Counted from the stretch's first letter, positions 6,929 to 50,536 are shown. The stretch: DNA of 64,000 nucleotides from an uncultured Actinomycetes bacterium (GCA_963846915.1 CAWJXV010000008.1:135310-199309), one strand, 5' to 3'. Notes: generated by a model not told the origin, from the letters alone. Translations and numbers: made by a program.

Positions 6929-9664
6929 CTAGATCGGCTCGACGCGGACGGCGCTGACCTTGTACTCGGGCGTGCCGATCAGCGGGTCGCCCACGTCGTG
7001 CGTCAGCCAGTTCACCTTCGCCTGCGCGAAGTGGAGCGCCATCCAGACGAGACCCGGGTACACGCGGTCGGTGATGCTCGCGCGCGCCTCGAGGTCGCCG
7101 CGGCGAGACACCAGCCGCGCCCAGTCCCCGTCGGCGAGGCCCAGGGCGGACGCATCCTCGGCGGAGATCTCGAAGAACGGATCCTCCTGCTTGTCGGTGA
7201 TGCCCGCTTCCCGCATCGTCATCGTGGCCGAGTTGTAGTGGTAGAGCGTGCGCCCGGTCGAGAGCGTCAGCGGATACTCGTTGTCGGGAAGCTCGATCGG
7301 CGGCTGGTACTCGACCGGCCAGAGCTTGCCCTTGCCGTTCGGCCGTGACGGTCGCGGCGCGTGCAGGATCTTCGACCCGGGGTCGTCGCGGTCGAGGCAC
7401 GGCCACTGGATCCCTTGCTCCTCGAGCCGGTCGTAGCGGATCCCGTACCAGTTCGGCGAGAGGTCGGCGAGCTCGTTCCAGACCGACTCGGCGTCCGGGT
7501 ACGCGGGCCACGACGCGCCCATCGCACGCGCCAGCCCGACGACGATGTCCCGGTCGACCCGCGCCTCGCCGGGACACGGCACGCCGGCGCGGACGCGGTT
7601 CACGCGCCGCTCCGTGTTCGTGAACGTCCCGTCCTTCTCGGCGAAGCTCGACGCCGGGAAGACGACGTCGGCGTGCGCGGCCGTGAGTTCGTTCAGGAAG
7701 AGATCCTGCGCGACGACGAAGTCGAGATGCTCGAAGCCCTCCTCGACGTGCTTCGCGTTCGGCTCCGTGTGTGCGGGATTCTCGCCGACGAGGTACAGCG
7801 CCTTGATCCGTCCGTCGTGGAGGCCGGAGATCATCTGGTCGAGTCGGTAGCCGAGCGTCTCGGGCACGTCCACGCCCCACGCCGCAGCAAACTTGGCGCG
7901 TACCTCCGGGTCGTCAGCGGCCTGGTAGCCGGGGTAATAGGCCGGGTTGGCGCCCGAGTCGTTCAGGCCCTGGACGTTGTTCTGGCCGCGCAGCGCGTTG
8001 AGCCCGGTCGATTCGTAGCCGAGGTGGCCGGTCGCGAGCACCAGGTTCGAGAGCGACCAGATGTTGTCGACGGCGCAGGCGTGCTCGGTGATGCCAAGCG
8101 TGTAGAAGATCGCCGCGTACCGCTCTGACGCGTACTCGCGCGCCGTGGCGCGGATGTCCTCGGCCGGCACGCCCGTGACCTTCTCGGCCGCCTCCGGTGT
8201 GTAGCGCCGGACGATCTCGCGTACCGCGTCGACGCCCTCCGTGTGCTCGGCGAGGTACTCGTCGTTCTGCAGGCCCTCCTCGAAGATCACGTGCAGCATC
8301 GCGTTGATCAGCCAGACGTCCGAGCCCGGCCGCAGCTGCAGGTGGCGCTTGGCGATCTTCGTCAGCCAGATCTTCCGCGGGTCGGCCACGACCAGCGTCG
8401 CTCCCCTCCGCACCGCCTTCTTCATTCGCAGCGCGAGCACGGGGTGCGCCTCGGTCGTGTTCGAGCCGATCACGAGCAGGAAGCGACAGTCCTCGATCTC
8501 CGGGATCGAGTTGGTGCTGGCTCCTCTGCCCAACGACCTGACCAGGCCGTAAAGAGTCGGCGCGTGTCAGGTGGCTTCGCAGGAGTGGATCGAGTTGGTC
8601 CCGATCACCCCCCGCGCCAGCTTCTGCAGCAGGTAGTTCTCCTCGTTCGTCAGGCGCGCCGACGCGAGGATGCCGATCGACTGCGGGCCGTGTCGCTCGC
8701 GGACGAGGGACAGACCCTCGGCCGCGGCCCGGAGAGCCGTGTCCCAGTCGGCCGGGTGGAGCTCGCCGTCCTCGCCGCGGACGAGGGGCTGCGTCAACCG
8801 GTCCGGATGGTGGACGAAGTTGAAGGCGAAACGGCCCTTCACGCAGAGGTTGCCGTCGTTCGAGACGTAGCCCGGGTCGGACGTGACCTTGACGATTCGC
8901 TCGGTCTTCGGGTCGACGTTGAGGTCGATCTGGCACCCGACGCCGCAGAACGTGCAGGTCGTCTTCGTCTTGACGAGCGCCTGCTCGTGCCCGGCCGGCG
9001 CGCCCGCGAGGAACTGCTCGTGGATCGCCCCGGTCGGGCACACCGAGAGGCAGCCGCCGCAGAGCTCGCACTCGGTGTCGAGCCAGGAGTGGCCGTGCGT
9101 CGGCACGACGCGGGCCTCGGCACCGCGCCCCTCGAACACGAGCGCCGAGCACTGCATGACCTCCTGCGTGTAGCGCACGCAGCGGTTGCAGAGGATGCAC
9201 GCGTCGGGGTCGTAGCCCATGAGCTTGTTGCGGTCCGAGTACTGCTCGCGGCCTGCGTCGGGGAGCAGGAACGGCGCCTGCGCGTCGAGCTCCTCGGCAA
9301 GGTCGGTGAGCTCGTTCGGCCGCCCGCCCGGGCTCGGGCTCAGATGCTCGGCGAGCAGCATCTCGGTCAGCGTCTTCCGGAGCGCGCCGTTCTCGCCGTT
9401 GGTCGAGACGACCATTCCCTCGCGCACCCGTTGCGCGCACGCGGGCACGGGACGCGGTGCGCCCTCGAGGTCGACGAGGCACATGCGGCAGCCCCCGTAG
9501 GGGTCGAGCTTGTCGTCGTGGCAGAGAGTCGGGATGAAGGTGCCGACGCGCGCGGCGGCGTGCACGAGCAGCTCGCCCTCCTGGGCCGAGATCCGCTTCC
9601 CGTCGAGGGTGAACTCGACCACGGCCTGATCGTACTCCGCCGGGCCGGCGCCCACGATGCGCAT
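6929..9664 (-). CDS. fdhA: Formate dehydrogenase alpha subunit (NuoG-like N-terminus, molybdopterin enzyme) with in-frame UGA read as selenocysteine
   Basis: ORFs 8567..9910 and 6929..8533 are in the same frame and separated only by TGA (8567-8569). The joined sequence ...GTNSIHSCEAT-U-HAPTLYGLVRSLGRGASTNSIPEIEDCRFLLVIGSNTTEAHPV matches the FDH active-site region (E. coli FdhF ...ARV-U-HGPSVAGL...). The N-terminus has 2Fe-2S and 4Fe-4S Cys clusters (CRMC, CILCNRCVRYT, CELCGGCLSVCP). Start placed at ATG 9664 (MRIVGAGPAEYDQAVVEFTLDGK). Confidence 0.85.
8530..8569 (-). promoter_or_regulatory. UGA(Sec) codon plus candidate bacterial SECIS hairpin
   Basis: mRNA after the UGA reads CACGCGCCGACUCUUUACGGCCUGGUCAGGUCGUUGGGC. 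By-eye fold: inner stem GGCCU/AGGUC closing a GGUC loop, and outer helix CCGAC/GUUGG (with G-U pairs). No energy calculation was done. Confidence 0.45.
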
Positions 9665-9676
9665 AGACTCGCGCAG

Positions 9677-10465
9677 TTGCCGGGCAGGCGGATCCGCACG
9701 AGATCGGCGCAGGGCCTGGCGGTCCTGTTCACGCTCGTCTGCTGGACGGCGCTCTTCGGGCTCAGCGATCTCGCGGACGGGTTCAGCGGCTTCGTCGACG
9801 GCGGCCGGAACACCGCGCTGGACGCCGGCTGGGGCATTCTCTTCGGCATCGTCCTGCCCGTCGGCCTCCTCGCGCAGCTGCGGTCGTCCTCGAGAGTCGC
9901 GGGGGTGCACGTGCTGCTGATCGCCGGGATTTCACTCGCCGCCTGGGGCGCCGCCGGCGAGGCGTGGGGCTACCTGGTGCTCGGCTCGGCCACAGTCGCC
10001 CTCGCGGCGCTCTTCGTCGCGCTGAGCGGCGAGCGCGCGTCCGTCCTGCGCCGGCGCGTCCCGGTGTTGCCTCCCTTGCTGCTCCTCGGCGCAGCGGCGA
10101 CGGTGCCGGCCGGTCTCTACGCGGTGCGCATGAGCTCGAACGCTAGGCAGCATCTCCCTCCCACCGATGCCGTATCGCTCGGCATCCCCCACTGGCCGGC
10201 ACTCGGGGCGCTCGCCTCGACCGTGGTGCTGCTCACGGTCGCGGCCGGGCTCGGCGTCCGCGGGCGTCTACTCCTCGGAAGCCTGGCCGGGCTCGCGGCG
10301 TGCCTGTGGGGCGTGTCGTGCCTGCTCTACCCCGGCGTCGCGGGGAGCGAGGGCCGAGGCTGGGCAGCGGCGGCAATCGTGTGGGCGGCGATCACGCTGG
10401 CAACCGTCGCGGTCGAGCGGCAGCGCGACGGTGCGCGAGCGGCCCCGGCGCCCGGCCCGGCCTAG
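9677..10465 (+). CDS. Hypothetical integral membrane protein
   Basis: C-terminal about 260 aa of ORF 8243..10465. Several hydrophobic helices (LAVLFTLVCWTALFGL, GILFGIVLPVGLL, LLIAGISLAAWGAAG, LPPLLLLGAAATVPAGL, TVVLLTVAAGLGV, AAAAIVWAAITLATVAV). The start is uncertain (TTG 9677 proposed). Divergent from fdhA. Confidence 0.45.
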   Translation: MPGRRIRTRSAQGLAVLFTLVCWTALFGLSDLADGFSGFVDGGRNTALDAGWGILFGIVLPVGLLAQLRSSSRVAGVHVLLIAGISLAAWGAAGEAWGYLVLGSATVALAALFVALSGERASVLRRRVPVLPPLLLLGAAATVPAGLYAVRMSSNARQHLPPTDAVSLGIPHWPALGALASTVVLLTVAAGLGVRGRLLLGSLAGLAACLWGVSCLLYPGVAGSEGRGWAAAAIVWAAITLATVAVERQRDGARAAPAPGPA

Positions 10466-18060: not shown

Positions 18061-18094
18061 GTGCCTGGCACGTGCCAGGCAGGTGCCTGGCACC
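18061..18094. promoter_or_regulatory. Array of three GTGCCWGGCAC palindromic units (candidate operator)
   Basis: GTGCCTGGCAC GTGCCAGGCA G GTGCCTGGCAC C lies between the ATPase start (18007, minus strand) and the regulator start (18127, plus strand). 18062-18081 is a perfect 20-bp palindrome. AT-rich stretch TAAATCGTGCTAAGGTGTTTTTAG follows. Confidence 0.4.
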
Positions 18095-18126: not shown

Positions 18127-18843
18127 GTGGACGCTCTGTCGGGGATCGCACAGCCGGAACTGCGGGAGATGGTGCTCTTCGCGCGCGCACAGGCGCACGC
18201 CGTGAGCGCGGACGACGTCGCAGGGCGCTTTCGCATCCATCGCACCGTCGCGCGGGCCCGGCTCGAGCGACTCGCCGCGGCCGGGCTCCTCACCGTCTCC
18301 TTCGAGCGGCGCTCAGGCAGGTCCGGCCCGGGAGCGGGCCGGCCGACGAAGCTGTACAGCGTGCCGCCGGAGACGAGCGCGATCGAGTTCCCGCAGCGCC
18401 ACTACGACCGGCTGCTCGGGCACCTCGTCGACGCGATACCCGAGGAGGAGCGCCGAATTGCACTCACCCGAGCCGGCGTCTCGTTCGGCGCCGATCTCGC
18501 CGAGACGGCCGGCCTCACGCGCACAAAGGGCATCCGCTCGGCGGCCGAGCGGGCCTGCGCGGCGCTCGGCAAGCTCGGCTTCCAGGCCTCCGTGGCCGAG
18601 TCCACCGAGGACAGCGTGACGATCGCGACGCCGACGTGTCCGCTGCGCCCGCTCGTCGTCGCCAACCCGGAAGCAGCGATCGTCGACCGGGGCATGTGGA
18701 TGGGGCTCCTCGACGCCTACCTTCCGCGCAGCCGGCCCTGCAGCGTGAGCTGCGAGACGCGAGGATGTCTCGACAGCCACGAATCGTGCCGGGTCCTACT
18801 CAGGTTCGAGACCGACAGTCCAAATACCATCCGGCACTCGTAA
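18127..18843 (+). CDS. Winged-helix transcriptional regulator with Cys-rich C-terminal domain
   Basis: ORF 18061..18843 trimmed to GTG 18127 (VDALSGIAQPELREMVLFA...). wHTH-like region ADDVAGRFRIHRTVARARLERLAAAGLLTVSFERR...GRPTKLY. C-terminal Cys residues (TPTCPLRP, CSVSCETRGC, HESC). Divergent from the P-type ATPase. Confidence 0.6.
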   Translation: MDALSGIAQPELREMVLFARAQAHAVSADDVAGRFRIHRTVARARLERLAAAGLLTVSFERRSGRSGPGAGRPTKLYSVPPETSAIEFPQRHYDRLLGHLVDAIPEEERRIALTRAGVSFGADLAETAGLTRTKGIRSAAERACAALGKLGFQASVAESTEDSVTIATPTCPLRPLVVANPEAAIVDRGMWMGLLDAYLPRSRPCSVSCETRGCLDSHESCRVLLRFETDSPNTIRHS

Positions 18844-18865: not shown

Positions 18866-20005
18866 GTGAGCTCGTACCGCTATCTGATCGTCGGAGGAGG
18901 CATGACCGGCGATGCCGCCTGCCGCGGGATCCGCGAGTACGACGGCGACGGCTCGATCGGGCTCGTCGGCGCCGAGCCGCACCCGCCCTACGATCGGCCG
19001 CCGCTCTCGAAAGCGCTCTGGCAGGGCAAGGACGAGAGCTCGATCTGGCGCGGGACGGAGGAGCTCGGGGCCGAGCTGCACGCCGGCCGCCGGATCGTCT
19101 CGCTCGACCTCGAACGCCGCACCGCGACCGACGACCAGGGCGACGAATACGGCTACGAGCGCATCCTGCTGGCGACGGGCGGCAAGCCGCGTCAGATCGA
19201 CGGCCTCGACGATGCGATCTACTTCCGCACCTTCGACGACTACCAGCGCCTTCGCCGGCTCTCCGGCGACGACGGGCGGTTCGTCGTCGTGGGCGGCGGC
19301 TTCATCGGCTCCGAGATCGCGGCGGCGCTCCAGTCGAGCGGCGCGAACGTGACCATGCTCTTCCCCGACGACGGGATCTGCGCCCGCCTCTTCCCCGCCG
19401 CGCTCTCGCAGTTCGTCACCGACTACTACCGCGAGAAGGGCGTCGAGGTGCTGACGGGCGAGCGGGTCCAGGCCGGCGACTCCCGGCTCGACGGCGCGGA
19501 GGCCGTCGTCGCGGGGCTCGGCATCGAGCCCGACACGGCGCTCGCCTCCGAGGCCGGCCTCCCGGTCGACAACGGCATCGTCGTCGACAGCTACGGGCGC
19601 GTCGGCCGCAACGACGTCTACGCAGCGGGCGACGTCGCGCGGTTCCCCGTCCCGGCGCTCGGCACCGAGATGCGCGTCGAGCACGAGGACCACGCACGCG
19701 CTCACGGCAGGGCGGTCGGCGCGAACATGGCCGGCGCGAACACGCCCTACGACCATCTGCCCTTCTTCTACTCCGACCTGTTCGACCTCGGCTACGAGGC
19801 GGTCGGCGAGGTCTCCTCGCGCCACGACACCGTCGAGCACTGGAAGGAGCCGGGGCGCGAAGGCGTTGTGGCGTACGTGGACGACCGGCTCGAGCCGCGT
19901 GGATTCCTGCTCTGGAACGTCTGGGGCAAGGTCGACGCCGCCCGCGACCTGATCCGCGCCGCGCAGCCGGTCGACGAGTCGACCGTGAGGGAGCTCGCCG
20001 GCTAG
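18866..20005 (+). CDS. FAD-dependent pyridine nucleotide-disulfide oxidoreductase (ferredoxin reductase / AIF-like)
   Basis: ORF 18866..20005 (GTG start). Dinucleotide folds YLIVGGGMTGDAA and FVVVGGGFIGSEIAA. YAAGDVA motif. Confidence 0.88.
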   Translation: MSSYRYLIVGGGMTGDAACRGIREYDGDGSIGLVGAEPHPPYDRPPLSKALWQGKDESSIWRGTEELGAELHAGRRIVSLDLERRTATDDQGDEYGYERILLATGGKPRQIDGLDDAIYFRTFDDYQRLRRLSGDDGRFVVVGGGFIGSEIAAALQSSGANVTMLFPDDGICARLFPAALSQFVTDYYREKGVEVLTGERVQAGDSRLDGAEAVVAGLGIEPDTALASEAGLPVDNGIVVDSYGRVGRNDVYAAGDVARFPVPALGTEMRVEHEDHARAHGRAVGANMAGANTPYDHLPFFYSDLFDLGYEAVGEVSSRHDTVEHWKEPGREGVVAYVDDRLEPRGFLLWNVWGKVDAARDLIRAAQPVDESTVRELAG

Positions 20006-20823
20006 TGACGGTCGCTGCCCACGCCGACCTCTACCGGCGCTCGATCAAGCGCCGGCCCGGAACCGAATTCGTCTGCGAGTACGTCTTCCGGCCCGCGGCG
20101 CAGCTCGTCGTGCTCGCGCTGCGGCCCTTGCGGGTCGCCCCGCCTGCGGTCGTGCTCGCGAACGCCGCCTGCGGCTTCGCCGGAGCGGTCGCGATCGCGC
20201 GAGGGAACCTGGTTGCAGGCGCACTGCTCCTGCAGGCGAAGACGCTGCTCGACAACGCCGACGGTCAACTCGCGCGAGCCACCGGCCGCGTCTCCGTCCT
20301 CGGCCGCTATCTCGACTCGGAGTCGGACCTGCTCGTGAACGCCGCCGTCCTCGCCGCGGTCGGCTACGCGGTCGACGGCCCCCTGCTCGCGCTCGCAGCG
20401 TTCGTCGTACTGACGATGGTGCTCAGCCTCGACTTCGACCTCGAGCGCCTGTTCCGGCGCGAGCACGGAGACGAGCGCGACCCGGCGCCGCCCGCCACGC
20501 AAGGCCTGGCCGGCCTGCTCGCGCGCGTCTACGCCGTGGTCTACGGCACGCAGGACCGGCTGATCGAGCGCTTCGTCGACTGGCGGCTGCGCGGCGCCGG
20601 CCCTGCCGAGCGCCTCGCCTACCACGACCGCGCCACGCTTCAGGTCCTGGCCAACTTCGGGCTCTCGACGCAGCTCGCCGCGCTCGGTCTTTGCCTGGCG
20701 ATCGGGCGTCCCGAGATCTACCTGTACGTCGTGCTCGGCTGCGGTGTCGCGGCCATGCTGCTCCTTCTGCGGAGAGAACTGCTCGCACACCGGGCCGGAC
20801 GCGTATCGACCACGAGGAGGTAA
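20005..20823 (+). CDS. CDP-alcohol phosphatidyltransferase family protein
   Basis: ORF 20005..20823. Exact family motif D-x2-DG-x2-AR-x8-G-x3-D-x3-D in DNADGQLARATGRVSVLGRYLDSESD. Multi-pass membrane protein. GTG overlaps the upstream TAG (TAGTG). Confidence 0.82.
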   Translation: MTVAAHADLYRRSIKRRPGTEFVCEYVFRPAAQLVVLALRPLRVAPPAVVLANAACGFAGAVAIARGNLVAGALLLQAKTLLDNADGQLARATGRVSVLGRYLDSESDLLVNAAVLAAVGYAVDGPLLALAAFVVLTMVLSLDFDLERLFRREHGDERDPAPPATQGLAGLLARVYAVVYGTQDRLIERFVDWRLRGAGPAERLAYHDRATLQVLANFGLSTQLAALGLCLAIGRPEIYLYVVLGCGVAAMLLLLRRELLAHRAGRVSTTRR

Positions 20824-20826
20824 CGA

Positions 20827-21477
20827 GTGCAGAGTGAGAACGTCGTCGATCTTCGGGAGGCCATCTCCCACCGGGCCGAGCCCGCGCCGCGAGAGATCGG
20901 CTCCGACGAGTGGCGGCGCTACGAGGAGTACATGCAGGAGATCTTCACCGCGCTCGGCATGGAGCCGGACACGCCCGGCACCCGCGAGACGCCGGCCCGG
21001 TTCCTGCGCGCGCTCTACGACGCGACCGCCGGCTACGACGGCGACGCGAAGCTGCTGACAGCCTTCCCGGCCGAGGGCCGCGGCGGCCCCGACAGCCTGG
21101 TCAGCCAGGTGGTCGAGGGGCCGATCTCGTTCCACTGTTTGTGCGAGCACCACGCGCTGCCGTTCTTCGGCGCCGCTCACGTCGCCTATGTCCCCCGGGA
21201 CGAGATCATCGGCATCTCCAAGCTGACGCGGCTCGTCCAGCTCTACGCACGGCGCTTCACCGTGCAGGAGCGGCTCGGCGAGCAAATCGCGGACTCGCTC
21301 GTCGACCTGATCGAGCCGCACGGCGTCGCCGTCCACCTCGAGGCGGCGCACCTCTGCACGCAGATGCGTGGCGTGCGCGAGGAGAACTCCCGGACCGTGA
21401 CGACGTTCTGGCGCGGCGGCTACTCGGACGACCAGGCGCTGCGACAGGACTTCCTCGCGCTCGTCCAGCGCTCGTGA
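20827..21477 (+). CDS. folE: GTP cyclohydrolase I
   Basis: ORF 20827..21477. FHCLCEHHALPFFG, GISKLTRLV, RFTVQERL, HLCTQMRGV. Confidence 0.93.
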   Translation: MQSENVVDLREAISHRAEPAPREIGSDEWRRYEEYMQEIFTALGMEPDTPGTRETPARFLRALYDATAGYDGDAKLLTAFPAEGRGGPDSLVSQVVEGPISFHCLCEHHALPFFGAAHVAYVPRDEIIGISKLTRLVQLYARRFTVQERLGEQIADSLVDLIEPHGVAVHLEAAHLCTQMRGVREENSRTVTTFWRGGYSDDQALRQDFLALVQRS

Positions 21478-22286
21478 ATCCGCTCGAGCTCCTCTACGAA
21501 ATCGACGGCCTCCCCGCCTTCGACCTTCCCGAGGAGCTCGAGCAACAGTACGGCGGGCGGTTCGGCATCGCGCCGCCGCTGCTCTACACGAACTTCGTCG
21601 AGACGCTCGACGGCGTCGTCGCGATCCGCTCGGAGCCGCTCACGAACCGGCTCGTGAGTGGCAACAGCGACGCAGATCGCTTTGTGATGGGCCTCCTGCG
21701 GGCGTGCGCCGACTGCGTGCTCCTCGGCTCGGGCACGCTGCACGGGTCGCCGAAGTCCGTCTGGACGGCGGAGCGCGCCTACCCCGACGGGGCCGCCGCG
21801 TTCGCCGAGCTGCGCCGCCGGCTCGGGCTGCCCGCCGAACCCGAGCTCGCCGTGATCACCGCGAGCGGCGCGCTCGACCCAGACCATCCCGCGCTCGAGC
21901 GGGGGGCGGTCGTGCTGACGACGAAGCACGGCGCATCCACCTGCCGGGGGCGGCTTTCCAGCGCGGTCGAGATCGTCGTGCTCGAGGGCGAGTCGGCCAT
22001 CGACCCGGCCGAGGCGGTCGACGTCCTGCGACGGCGGGAACGCCGGTCGATCCTCTCGGAGGCAGGCCCGCACGTCTTCGGCTCGCTGCTCGCGGCAGGG
22101 CTCGTCGACGAAATGTTCCTGACGGTCTCGCCGCTCCTCGCCGGCCGCTCGCCGCTCGCCGAGCGACTCGGGCTGGTCGAAGGACAGGAGCTCCTCCCCG
22201 GCCGGGCCGAACAGGCGCGCCTGCTGGGCGTCCGCCGCGACGAGGCGCATCTCTTCCTGCGCTACGGGCTATCGTCCGGCGCGTGA
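21474..22286 (+). CDS. RibD C-terminal domain / dihydrofolate-reductase-like reductase family protein
   Basis: GTG 21474 within ORF 20910..22286 (GTGA overlap with the folE stop). VETLDGVVA..., ADCVLLGSGT, ILSEAGPHVFGSLLAAGLVDEMFLTVSPLLAG are typical of the RibD_C fold. Confidence 0.78.
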   Translation: MNPLELLYEIDGLPAFDLPEELEQQYGGRFGIAPPLLYTNFVETLDGVVAIRSEPLTNRLVSGNSDADRFVMGLLRACADCVLLGSGTLHGSPKSVWTAERAYPDGAAAFAELRRRLGLPAEPELAVITASGALDPDHPALERGAVVLTTKHGASTCRGRLSSAVEIVVLEGESAIDPAEAVDVLRRRERRSILSEAGPHVFGSLLAAGLVDEMFLTVSPLLAGRSPLAERLGLVEGQELLPGRAEQARLLGVRRDEAHLFLRYGLSSGA

Positions 22287-23747
22287 CGACCGGGCTGAAC
22301 GAGCTTCCGCGCGAGCGCACGCAGCTCCTCGACAACCTCGGCTGGATCCGCCGGAACCTCGGCCCGGTCACGCCCGAGCTCTCGGACGCGCTCGCCGACC
22401 ACATGAACATCCGCCGCGGCGAGGTGGCCGAGGTGGCCTCGTTCTACTCGTACCTGCGCCTGCCGGCCGACGTCGTCCGGGTCTGCACGGGGCCGGTGTG
22501 CGACTGCCTCGGCGGCCGCGCGCTGCTCGAGCAGAGCCCGGGCGCGGTCGAGGTGCCGTGCATCGGCCACTGCGACCTCGCTCCCGCGATGATGCGCGGC
22601 GACGAGGTCGTGCCCGGCGTGACGCACGCGGCGAATCACGGTCGGTCGATCGACCTGCTCGCGCCGGACGAGCCGCGCGACCCGCCCGCGCTCGATCCCG
22701 ACCGGATCGTGGCCGAGCTCGAGGCCTCCGGGCTCGTCGGCTACGGCGGCGCCGGATTCCCGACCTTCCGGAAGTGGGCCGCGGTGCGCGACTACCCCGG
22801 CCCGCGCGTCGTGATCGTGAACGCCGACGAGGGCGAGCCCGGGACGATCAAGGACCGCTACGTCATGGAGCTGCGGCCGCACCTGCTCGTCGAGGGGATC
22901 GAGATCGCGATGCGGTTCGCGGAGGCCGACGAGGGCTACGTCTACCTCCGGGAGGAGTACACGACGGCGCGGGAGCGCCTGTCCGCGGCGCTGGCCGCAC
23001 GTGGGCTCCCGGTCACGATCGTCACCGGCGCCGGCTCGTACGTCTGCGGCGAGGAGACGGCGATGCTCGAGTCGATGGAGGGCCGCCGCGGCATGCCCCG
23101 CCTGCGCCCGCCGTTCCCGGTCGAGGCCGGCTTCCTCGGCCGCCCGACGCTGATCAACAACGTCGAGACGCTCGCTCACATCCCGGCCGTCCTGCGCCTC
23201 GGCGGCGCGAGTCTGGCCGCGCGTCCGTCTCTGGTCGGTCTCGGGCGCGGTCGCGAAGCCGGGCTGCTACGAGGCGCCGGTCGACGCCACCGCCCGGCAG
23301 CTGATCGACGACTACGCGGGCGGCGCGACCGGGGACATCGGCGCCGTCGTACCGGGCGGCGCCGCGTCCGGGATTGTCCCGCCCGCTGCGCTCGACGCGC
23401 CGCTCACGCGCGAGGGCCTGGCGCCGTGGGGCTCCGGCCCCGGCTCGGCCGGCCTCCAGGTCTTCCCCGCGTCCTACTCCGTGCTGCGGCTCCTGCGCGA
23501 GACCATGCGGTTCTTCGCCGAGGAGTCGTGCCAGAAATGTACGCCGTGCCGCATCGGCACGCGCGGGCTCGAGCACGTCCTCCACGAGCTGGAGGAAGGC
23601 AGACCGGCGATGCCCGGCTGGCAGCTCGAGGAGTGGCTCGTCGCGATGGAGAAGGGCTCGATCTGTGGGCTCGGCCAGGGCGCGCCCATCCCCCTGCGCG
23701 GCGCGATGCGCCACTGGCCGGAGCTCTTCACGCCGCTCGCCAGCTAA
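22283..23747 (+). pseudogene. NuoE/NuoF-like (FdsB-type) NAD(H)-FMN iron-sulfur protein, reading frame broken once near 23207-23229
   Basis: GTG 22283 (GTGA overlap). N-terminal thioredoxin-like part (EVASFYSYLRL, CTGPVCDC, CIGHCDLAP). NuoF core GYGGAGFPTFRKW, VIVNADEGEPGTIKDR, GAGSYVCGEETAMLESMEG, PFPVEAGFLGRPTLINNVETLAHIPAVLRLGG. The conserved continuation LWSVSGAVAKPGCYEAP...FFAEESCQKCTPCRIG...GSICGLGQGAP then runs in the +1 frame (ORF 23481..23747 is its end). Total length 1465 nt is not a multiple of 3. Confidence 0.8.
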
Positions 23748-23844: not shown

Positions 23845-24579
23845 ATGCGTGGTGGTGTAAGGGTCGTCCTCTTTGCAGCTCTGGCGGTGGCTGGTCTTGC
23901 CGCGGGAGTGTTCGTACCGGGCGGCGAGGCTGGCTCCACAACCTCGCACGCGAGATCCCATGCGGAGGCGACGACCCGCGTGACGGTCATTGCCAGAGAC
24001 TCCAGGTTCACGCTCTCGAGGCGCAGCGCCCCCATCGGAAAGGTGATCTTCGCCGTCACCAACAAGGGCAAGATCTCCCACGATTTCAAGATCGCCGGGA
24101 AGAAGACTCCTCTCCTCGCACCCAGGCACTCCGCGACGTTGCGGGTCACGTTCTCGAAGAAAGGCCGGTACCCCTACCTCTCCACCGTTACCGGACAGGC
24201 AACCGCCGGCATGAACGGTGTCTTCACGGTTGTGGCCGCGGTCGCGCCCACACCCACACCACCCCCACCCCCTCCGTACGCCCCGCCGACCGGGCCGGTC
24301 GGAACGGCCAGCACGACGGTCACCGTCACACTGTCCGACATCAGGTTCCCCGGCCGCATCGATCTCTCTCAGACGACGATGCCGTCGGGCATGGTCACGT
24401 TCGTGATCACGAACCACTGCTCCGATCAGTGCAGCTTCGACCTCGAGGGCATCAAGGCGGGCGCGATACTCAACACCGGCCAGTCCGAGACGTGGACGGT
24501 GCCGCTGCCGGGAGGCACGTACCAATACCACTGCGACGTAGACCCCAACATGAAGGGGTCGTTCACCGTCACGCCCTGA
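23845..24579 (+). CDS. Secreted tandem cupredoxin-like domain protein
   Basis: ORF 23845..24579. AGGAGG lies 7 nt upstream of the ATG. Signal peptide. Two repeats of a cupredoxin-like module (VIFAVTNKGKISHDFKI...GRYPYLS and VTFVITNHCSDQCSFDL...GTYQYHCDVDPNMKG) joined by a Pro-rich linker. The type-1 Cu ligand set is incomplete. Confidence 0.72.
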   Translation: MRGGVRVVLFAALAVAGLAAGVFVPGGEAGSTTSHARSHAEATTRVTVIARDSRFTLSRRSAPIGKVIFAVTNKGKISHDFKIAGKKTPLLAPRHSATLRVTFSKKGRYPYLSTVTGQATAGMNGVFTVVAAVAPTPTPPPPPPYAPPTGPVGTASTTVTVTLSDIRFPGRIDLSQTTMPSGMVTFVITNHCSDQCSFDLEGIKAGAILNTGQSETWTVPLPGGTYQYHCDVDPNMKGSFTVTP

Positions 24580-50293: not shown

Positions 50294-50536
50294 ATGAGCA
50301 CGCCCGAAGGCTGGAGCGAGGTCGACGGGGCGCTGCAGCGCGAATTCCGATTCCCGGACTTCGCCGAGGCGCTCGCGTTCGTGAACCGCGTCGGCGAGCT
50401 GGCGGAGGCCGAGAACCACCATCCAGACATCGAGCTCGGCTGGGGCCGGGTGCTCCTGCGCTGGCGGACCCACTCCGCGGACGCGATCACCGACCGCGAC
50501 CGCGACATGGCAGCTCGCTCGGCCGCCCTCGCCTAG
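50294..50536 (+). CDS. phhB: 4a-hydroxytetrahydrobiopterin dehydratase (pterin-4-alpha-carbinolamine dehydratase)
   Basis: ATG 50294 within ORF 49802..50536. FRFPDFAEALAFVNRVGELAEAENHHPDIELGWGRVLLRWRTHS is the PCD signature. Confidence 0.88.
   Translation: MSTPEGWSEVDGALQREFRFPDFAEALAFVNRVGELAEAENHHPDIELGWGRVLLRWRTHSADAITDRDRDMAARSAALA

Follow-up and report, generated by a model that had tools for sequence, protein, structure and literature searches.

Which product could require a membrane-embedded CDP-alcohol phosphotransferase to be encoded among enzymes of pterin metabolism is the question raised by a locus of an uncultured Actinomycetes bacterium (GCA_963846915.1, CAWJXV010000008.1:135310-199309). 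The whole stretch analysed, hereafter the window, comprises 64,000 nucleotides with a G+C content of 71%, and at positions 18866-23747 five reading frames follow one another on its plus strand. Gene 1 (18866-20005; domains Pyr_redox_2 and AIF_C) encodes an FAD and NAD(H) oxidoreductase of the AIF/ferredoxin-reductase type, gene 2 (20005-20823; PF01066) a divergent CDP-alcohol phosphotransferase that is an integral membrane protein, gene 3 (20827-21477; PF01227) a GTP cyclohydrolase I of type IA (FolE), gene 4 (21474-22286; PF01872) an NADPH reductase with the RibD_C/dihydrofolate reductase (DHFR) fold, and gene 5 (22283-23747; 2Fe-2S_thioredx, Complex1_51K and NADH_4Fe-4S) a NuoE-NuoF fusion with a 2Fe-2S cluster, an FMN and NADH site and a 4Fe-4S cluster. 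An initial annotation of the window had described these genes as an operon joined almost without gaps and had speculated about a phospho-alcohol- or lipid-linked pterin. All frames and junctions are found as it described them: TAGTG at 20003-20007 joins genes 1 and 2, a TAA stop, 3 nt and a GTG start at 20821-20829 separate genes 2 and 3, and GTGA overlaps at 21474-21477 and 22283-22286 connect genes 3 and 4 and genes 4 and 5, respectively. The genes and junctions of the five-gene operon are therefore real, with the exception that gene 5 is not one open frame. Comparison across species makes it likely that the block serves pterin metabolism as a dedicated module and is functionally tied to the transferase, its anchor gene, and that the NuoEF-like gene is probably a resident neighbour and not part of this module.

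Conservation of the block in Gaiellaceae

Relatives of the transferase were scanned in one genome per species, yielding 458 encoding places; the best 80 of these 458 were examined, and all of them lie in Gaiellaceae, Gaiellales or Thermoleophilia-type metagenome-assembled genomes. Neighbours were counted at species level for Gaiellaceae in the 64 of these 80 loci that have enough flanking sequence, by searching the flanks with the proteins of the window together with pterin-4a-carbinolamine dehydratase (PCD) and short-chain dehydrogenase (SDR) sequences from relatives. RibD_C lies beside the transferase in 63 of the 64 loci and FolE in 61, so that the FolE, RibD_C and transferase triad emphasized initially is conserved as a unit. 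PCD, in most cases encoded divergently and immediately upstream of the transferase, is linked in 48 loci and had been missed as a member in the initial annotation; the AIF-like flavoprotein is part of the block in 34 loci, and an SDR is inserted between FolE and RibD_C in 21. The NuoEF-like gene adjoins the block in only four loci, which argues against the five genes as one functional unit. The conserved order is transferase, FolE, optional SDR and RibD_C. Since the AIF-like gene and the SDR are nearly mutually exclusive, both being present in a single locus, their distribution suggests that they fill the same role.

The spacing of the genes is identical in the four nearest species, and the core order is kept in more than 60 species, well past what would be expected from chance compaction. 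In addition, the outer flanks vary by locus and include Calvin-cycle genes, succinyl-CoA ligase, or aconitase together with a P-type ATPase, which indicates that the linkage is not inherited synteny alone. The transferase is present in 8 of 25 genomes of the genus, in none of 16 genomes from other families of the order and in 3 of 301 genomes sampled across the phylum; the block is an accessory, narrowly distributed element. In the window genome, PCD (50294-50536, plus strand; PF01329, 89 bits) is located about 30 kb downstream of the block, and a distance of about 30 kb is also seen in G023, G024 and G001. Its in-frame version starting one codon further inside (50297-50536) scores 82.3 bits on NF002017 against a cut-off of 80, and the copy in locus L009 reaches 84.4 against the same cut-off. 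PCD is thus a regular member of the module that is displaced by 30 kb in the window genome.

Two species carry a different gene at the position of the transferase. In G020 and G003, a GT2 glycosyltransferase is encoded on the opposite strand between the AIF-like gene and FolE; the copy in G020 (L099:7769-8488, minus strand) matches PF00535 with 61.6 bits, and the one in G003 is a fragment (L100:9603-9845). This exchange, seen in two species only, is as expected if both enzymes decorate the same alcohol. Pteridine glycosides, in which a glycosyltransferase decorates the pterin side chain, are known from cyanobacteria and green sulfur bacteria. The block shares with them the idea of decorating a side-chain hydroxyl, and differs in that its usual decorating enzyme is a CDP-alcohol phosphotransferase, for which the link would be a phosphodiester and not a glycoside.

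As a separate observation, a membrane protein of about 535 aa is encoded directly after RibD_C in 18 loci (e.g. L009:11308-12915 and L047:11193-12812, both on the plus strand), nearly all of them of the SDR-type variant. No sequence match to this protein was obtained in Pfam, NCBIfam or the PDB; its AlphaFold2 model (pLDDT 73) retrieves only GT-C-fold transferases (AftD, STT3, ALG12) among the top ten fold matches. The donors of GT-C enzymes are lipid-phosphate-linked.

The transferase and its relatives

Gene 2 matches CDP-OH_P_transf (PF01066) with 41.8 bits against a cut-off of 22. The D-x2-DG-x2-AR-x8-G-x3-D-x3-D motif that had been read from its translation is complete (D83, D86, G87, A90, R91, G100, D104 and D108), is located on transmembrane helices 2-3 and is invariant in 54 homologues. 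The protein stays under every NCBIfam equivalog cut-off, including those for archaetidylinositol-phosphate synthase (AIPS, 43 of 180 bits), PIPS (41.7 of 170) and PssA (32 of 107) as well as those for ClsA and DIPPS. Partial NCBIfam matches are best to archaetidylinositol-phosphate synthase, to PIP synthase and to DIPP synthase. An AlphaFold2 model (pLDDT 94) aligns with DIPPS, AF2299 and PIPS at a Foldseek probability of 1.0 and TM-scores of 0.47-0.60, and a profile search against PDB sequences recovers the same group (PIPS, AIPS and DIPPS). The acceptors of PIPS, AIPS and DIPPS are phosphorylated polyols. Gene 2 resembles PIPS/PgsA1, AIPS and DIPPS in its catalytic motif and its multi-helix membrane fold; in contrast to these enzymes, it has conserved N-terminal and C-terminal motifs of its own and is never found with inositol genes, but instead with pterin genes. 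The window genome carries four other PF01066 genes. Among 14 control genomes, PF01066 was matched in 13 and gave no match in Deinococcus radiodurans R1, which reflects either a miss of the first-look filter or a true lack of the family.

Searching 1.8 billion representative proteins with a profile identifies 134 clusters of the transferase (50% identity) at E ≤1e-30, a subfamily that is at present automatically annotated as PGP or archaetidylinositol-phosphate synthases. In a phylogenetic tree, the Gaiellaceae branch and several others form a clade with a support of 100/100. One of these is a Deinococcus branch, in which the transferase is accompanied by a Nudix hydrolase and an SDR; many Deinococcus species carry the transferase, and in the cultured strain Deinococcus maricopensis DSM 21211 (CP002454.1) the three genes are joined by 4-nt overlaps. 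A Trueperaceae-like branch has the same triad of transferase, Nudix and SDR within different flanks. The SDRs of the triads in L104 and L107 score 332 and 305 bits on NF012208 (cut-off 325), the model for the 'bifunctional dihydropteridine reductase/dihydrofolate reductase TmpR'. A third arrangement is present in L110 (58% G+C), where the transferase is followed by a 125-aa ORF, a TmpR-type SDR (337 bits) and a canonical FolE. The ORF (L110:6765-7142, plus strand) lies between transferase and SDR, at the position that Nudix occupies in Deinococcota, and has no family match. One further branch inside the clade adjoins PlsY, a phospholipid-synthesis gene. Across at least two phyla and in three arrangements, the clade thus has reductases of the pterin ring and early pterin enzymes as neighbours.

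Pterin enzymes, gene 5 and flanking features

FolE of the window matches PF01227 (184 bits, cut-off 27), NF006826 (179.9, cut-off 162) and NF006825 (176.7, cut-off 174) and falls just under the cut-off of TIGR00063 (175.6 against 181.6). The motifs FHCLCEHHALPF, HLCTQMRGV and VQERLGEQ are readable in its translation, and their CEHH, HxCxxMRG and QERL elements are the zinc-ligand and catalytic motifs of FolE. Gene 3 is the only PF01227 gene of the window genome. A housekeeping counterpart, for which the initial annotation had suggested a search, is found in FolE2 (type IB, PF02649), encoded on another contig (C7:99040-99894) and present in 22 of the 25 genomes of the genus, the three genomes lacking it being only 65-76% complete. 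Type IA FolE occurs in 10 of these 25 genomes, and in all seven that have both this enzyme and the transferase the two genes are about 100-140 bp apart. Since FolE2 is near-universal and type IA FolE is patchy and adjoins the transferase, the FolE of the operon is an accessory second GTP cyclohydrolase I and not the housekeeping copy. The case that the initial annotation had given as a refutation, in which this folE is the sole copy, therefore does not apply. FolP is near-universal in the genus and present in the window genome; together with FolE2 it serves folate synthesis. Canonical DHFR (PF00186) is absent from all 41 Gaiellales genomes searched (G000-G040), and one of the five RibD_C genes may be the DHFR substitute of the order.

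Gene 4 is one of these five RibD_C paralogues and matches PF01872 with 70.2 bits against a cut-off of 24.1. Its nearest solved relative is Rv2671 of Mycobacterium tuberculosis (4xrb, E 1.7e-18), while the cut-off of the pyrimidine reductase family of Rv2671 type (PRK14059) is not reached (88.8 of 226 bits). Rv2671 has been treated as a DHFR analogue and provides a precedent for a RibD_C-fold enzyme that reduces a dihydropterin ring (PMC10530724); gene 4 differs from it in its low similarity and its gene context. Gene 1 is assigned by Pyr_redox_2 (166 bits), Pyr_redox (58 bits) and AIF_C (44.6 against 25.9) and stays far under the cut-offs of the named equivalogs HcaD and AndAa. The solved structures closest to it are those of AIF, putidaredoxin reductase and monodehydroascorbate reductase, all of them NADH-dependent flavoproteins, of which some reduce small organic molecules.

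Taken as a set, these enzymes resemble the tetrahydromonapterin and tetrahydrobiopterin pathways, with which the block has in common a start from FolE, a pterin-ring reductase, the link to PCD and a candidate quinonoid-pterin reductase. In contrast to these pathways, the block contains no orthologue of PTPS, FolX or FolM, its ring reductase is of the RibD_C fold, and a membrane phosphotransferase is its most constant partner. Systems of the PhhA/PhhB type comprise an aromatic amino acid hydroxylase, of which none is found in the 41 genomes. The queuosine/7-deazaguanine pathway was also considered and rejected, as no QueD, QueE or QueC domain occurs among the annotated neighbours, the ORFs having not been searched for these families.

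Gene 5 is a NuoE-NuoF fusion outside any nuo operon. Its frame shifts by +1 at about position 23210, where the window has one extra base relative to six related genomes (GCG-A-GTCTGG in the window, GCG-GCCTGG in the relatives); both halves are otherwise well conserved. The additional base is either an assembly error or a real mutation, and a programmed frameshift is ruled out by the six relatives without it. Many genes are split into two to four frame-shifted pieces in related long-contig genomes (L100 of G003; G005, G022 and G040), which indicates that indel errors are common in this genome collection and bears on the break in gene 5. In the relatives the gene is intact with 486-489 aa, and an intact relative reaches 318.6 of the 558.65 bits set for NuoF by TIGR01959, so that the domains alone match.

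Upstream of the block, with 22 nt between its end and gene 1, lies the gene of a Cys-rich winged-helix protein (18127-18843, plus strand; the longest possible frame opens at 18061). The protein matches no Pfam or NCBIfam family and is a candidate for regulating the block. In 5 of the 80 loci, a homologue is encoded immediately ahead of the block (L015, L016, L020 and L081, and L085 on the opposite strand), and in G012 a homologue likewise precedes the block, with a 4-nt overlap to the AIF-like gene. Searches upstream of the block returned no riboswitch or other RNA at E ≤0.1, and a promoter and terminator scan gave no score above background. The gene after the block (23845-24579, plus strand) encodes a secreted-looking protein with weak matches to EfeO and CopI (cupredoxin-like), and a copA-csoR pair is located 3 kb beyond it.

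Proposed product and competing explanations

A sequence of reactions can be proposed for the module. FolE would convert GTP into 7,8-dihydroneopterin triphosphate, an established reaction of this family for which the catalytic motifs are intact. The triphosphate would then be trimmed, possibly by the Nudix hydrolase in the Deinococcota version. Judging from its fold, its nearest relative Rv2671 and the TmpR-type SDR that takes this position in other lineages, the RibD_C/DHFR-fold protein would use NAD(P)H to reduce the ring of the 7,8-dihydropterin to its tetrahydro form. Next, the membrane transferase would link a phosphate ester to one of the hydroxyls on the pterin's glycerol-like side chain, with release of CMP. 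Here, the phosphorylated triol side chain of dihydroneopterin phosphate would be an acceptor analogous to those of the PIPS type. As the blocks encode no dedicated cytidylyltransferase, housekeeping CDP-diacylglycerol would be the simplest donor and would lead to a membrane-anchored pterin of the phosphatidyl-neopterin type; a soluble CDP-alcohol is also possible as donor. After oxidation, PCD would dehydrate the 4a-hydroxy form, and the AIF-like flavoprotein, or the SDR in other species, would reduce the quinonoid form back.

That the tie between module and transferase is a covalent phosphodiester to the pterin is a plausible supposition that falls just short of being probable, and that the product is a lipid can be suggested only tentatively. 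With similar caution, it is hypothesized that the module possibly makes a phosphatidyl-linked tetrahydropterin, that is, a membrane-anchored redox cofactor or antioxidant with its own recycling by dehydratase and reductase. The extension of this reading from Gaiellaceae to the Nudix/TmpR version in Deinococcus and Trueperaceae is similarly a possibility on the doubtful side. The speculation of the initial annotation about a phospho-alcohol- or lipid-linked pterin nevertheless remains the best reading, and it gains support from the linkage to PCD, from the pterin-related neighbours found in Deinococcota and from the glycosyltransferase that takes the place of the transferase in two species. Although the enzyme families are known, their combination and the implied product match no described pathway found. 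In literature searches, neither a link between a pterin pathway and a CDP-alcohol phosphotransferase or 'CDP-alcohol phosphatidyltransferase' nor a paper in which PCD and GTP cyclohydrolase I occur along with both 'gene cluster' and 'membrane' was found, nothing related was found on TmpR, and neopterin and CDP-diacylglycerol appear together only in one multi-omics paper on aged macaques, where each term occurs once.

Several observations weigh against this proposal. L109, which belongs to the PlsY branch inside the clade, and L102 (Calditrichota), a member of the outgroup clade of the tree, have no pterin neighbour. G008 has transferase and PCD without FolE or RibD_C, and conversely the block of G011 comprises RibD_C, FolE and the AIF-like gene but lacks both transferase and GT2. 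The fold search matches lipid-donor and soluble-donor enzymes about equally well. Biopterin_H (aromatic amino acid hydroxylase) is found in none of the 41 genomes searched, and no client oxygenase was found. Moreover, the product and every step after FolE are read from family membership and gene context, and the absence of canonical DHFR from the order keeps a folate-related reading alive. In Deinococcota, this transferase could be the synthase of glyceroyl-alkylamine phospholipids.

The last point also belongs to an explanation by cofactor supply, in which the block would provide free tetrahydropterin for a pterin-dependent membrane oxygenase acting on the lipid or head-group alcohol of the transferase, without any bond between pterin and phosphate. 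Deinococcus and Thermus have unusual alkylamine phospholipids, those of Deinococcota being of the glyceroyl-alkylamine type. Such alkylamine phospholipids are mentioned in PMC3398001. The PlsY neighbour in one branch likewise points to lipid synthesis, the pterin genes of G011 persist without transferase, and PCD is normally tied to pterin-dependent hydroxylation, so that a hydroxylase partner would be expected. No known family of pterin-dependent oxygenases is encoded in or near the block, however, in line with the absence of Biopterin_H, and a soluble pathway has no obvious need of a translationally coupled membrane transferase in two phyla. The GT2 in the same slot is also more readily understood as another way of decorating one and the same molecule, and cofactor supply is considered unlikely. 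A folate branch is rather improbable: here, zinc-dependent FolE and RibD_C as DHFR substitute would back up tetrahydrofolate synthesis in an order without FolA, and the transferase would be an unrelated phospholipid synthase nearby by chance or compaction. The missing PF00186 gene, the DHFR activity named for TmpR by NCBIfam and the treatment of Rv2671 as a DHFR analogue (PMC10530724) speak for it. Folate synthesis is universal, with near-universal FolE2 and FolP, whereas the block is accessory (8-10 of the 25 genomes of the genus), and four other RibD_C paralogues are available in the window genome. PCD has no role in folate synthesis and is nonetheless linked in three quarters of the loci counted, the same linkage recurs in the three arrangements across phyla, and the transferase stays under the cut-offs of all named phospholipid synthases in a genome with four other PF01066 genes.

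A single pathway comprising all five genes, in which NuoEF would pass electrons from NADH via its iron-sulfur clusters to the AIF-like protein or the pterin, is very improbable. The GTGA overlap couples genes 4 and 5, and the same adjacency is seen in G001, G019, G023, G024, G020 and G003. Full-length NuoEF orthologues (73-100% identity) are, on the other hand, present in most genomes of the genus, including at least nine without transferase (73-76% identity). In such genomes the orthologue is located directly after acnA (L112 of G011, L114 of G013) or, in G015 (L113:8266-10720), before a formate/nitrite transporter (PF01226, 266 bits). In G012 a distance of 7 kb separates it from the block, and in the window genome its frame is broken. 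These orthologues and the rarity of the adjacency indicate that NuoEF is not a core member. In the sub-clade of the window, acnA and NuoEF are separated by the pterin block together with a regulator, a P-type ATPase, a kinase-like gene and a phosphatase; the simplest history would be an arrival of the block upstream of a NuoEF gene that was already resident. A possible partnership with the selenocysteine formate dehydrogenase at 6929-9910, which the initial annotation had named as an alternative, fits NuoEF better than membership in the pterin module; that enzyme has no NuoE/F gene of its own next to it. As a side observation, a zinc alcohol dehydrogenase and a formate-tetrahydrofolate ligase are encoded near NuoEF in G013 (L114), and the dehydrogenase only in G011 (L112).

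The known roles of pterins are those of soluble cofactor, pigment and signal. If the block indeed links a pterin through a phosphodiester, possibly to a membrane lipid, it would add a branch to pterin metabolism and perhaps define a new class of lipids. In addition, it would provide a function for the whole subfamily of 134 clusters of 'CDP-alcohol phosphatidyltransferase family proteins' and would hint that, in Deinococcota, the TmpR-type reductase has a physiological task other than the replacement of DHFR. Since the Deinococcus version is present in cultured strains, the hypothesis is open to direct testing.

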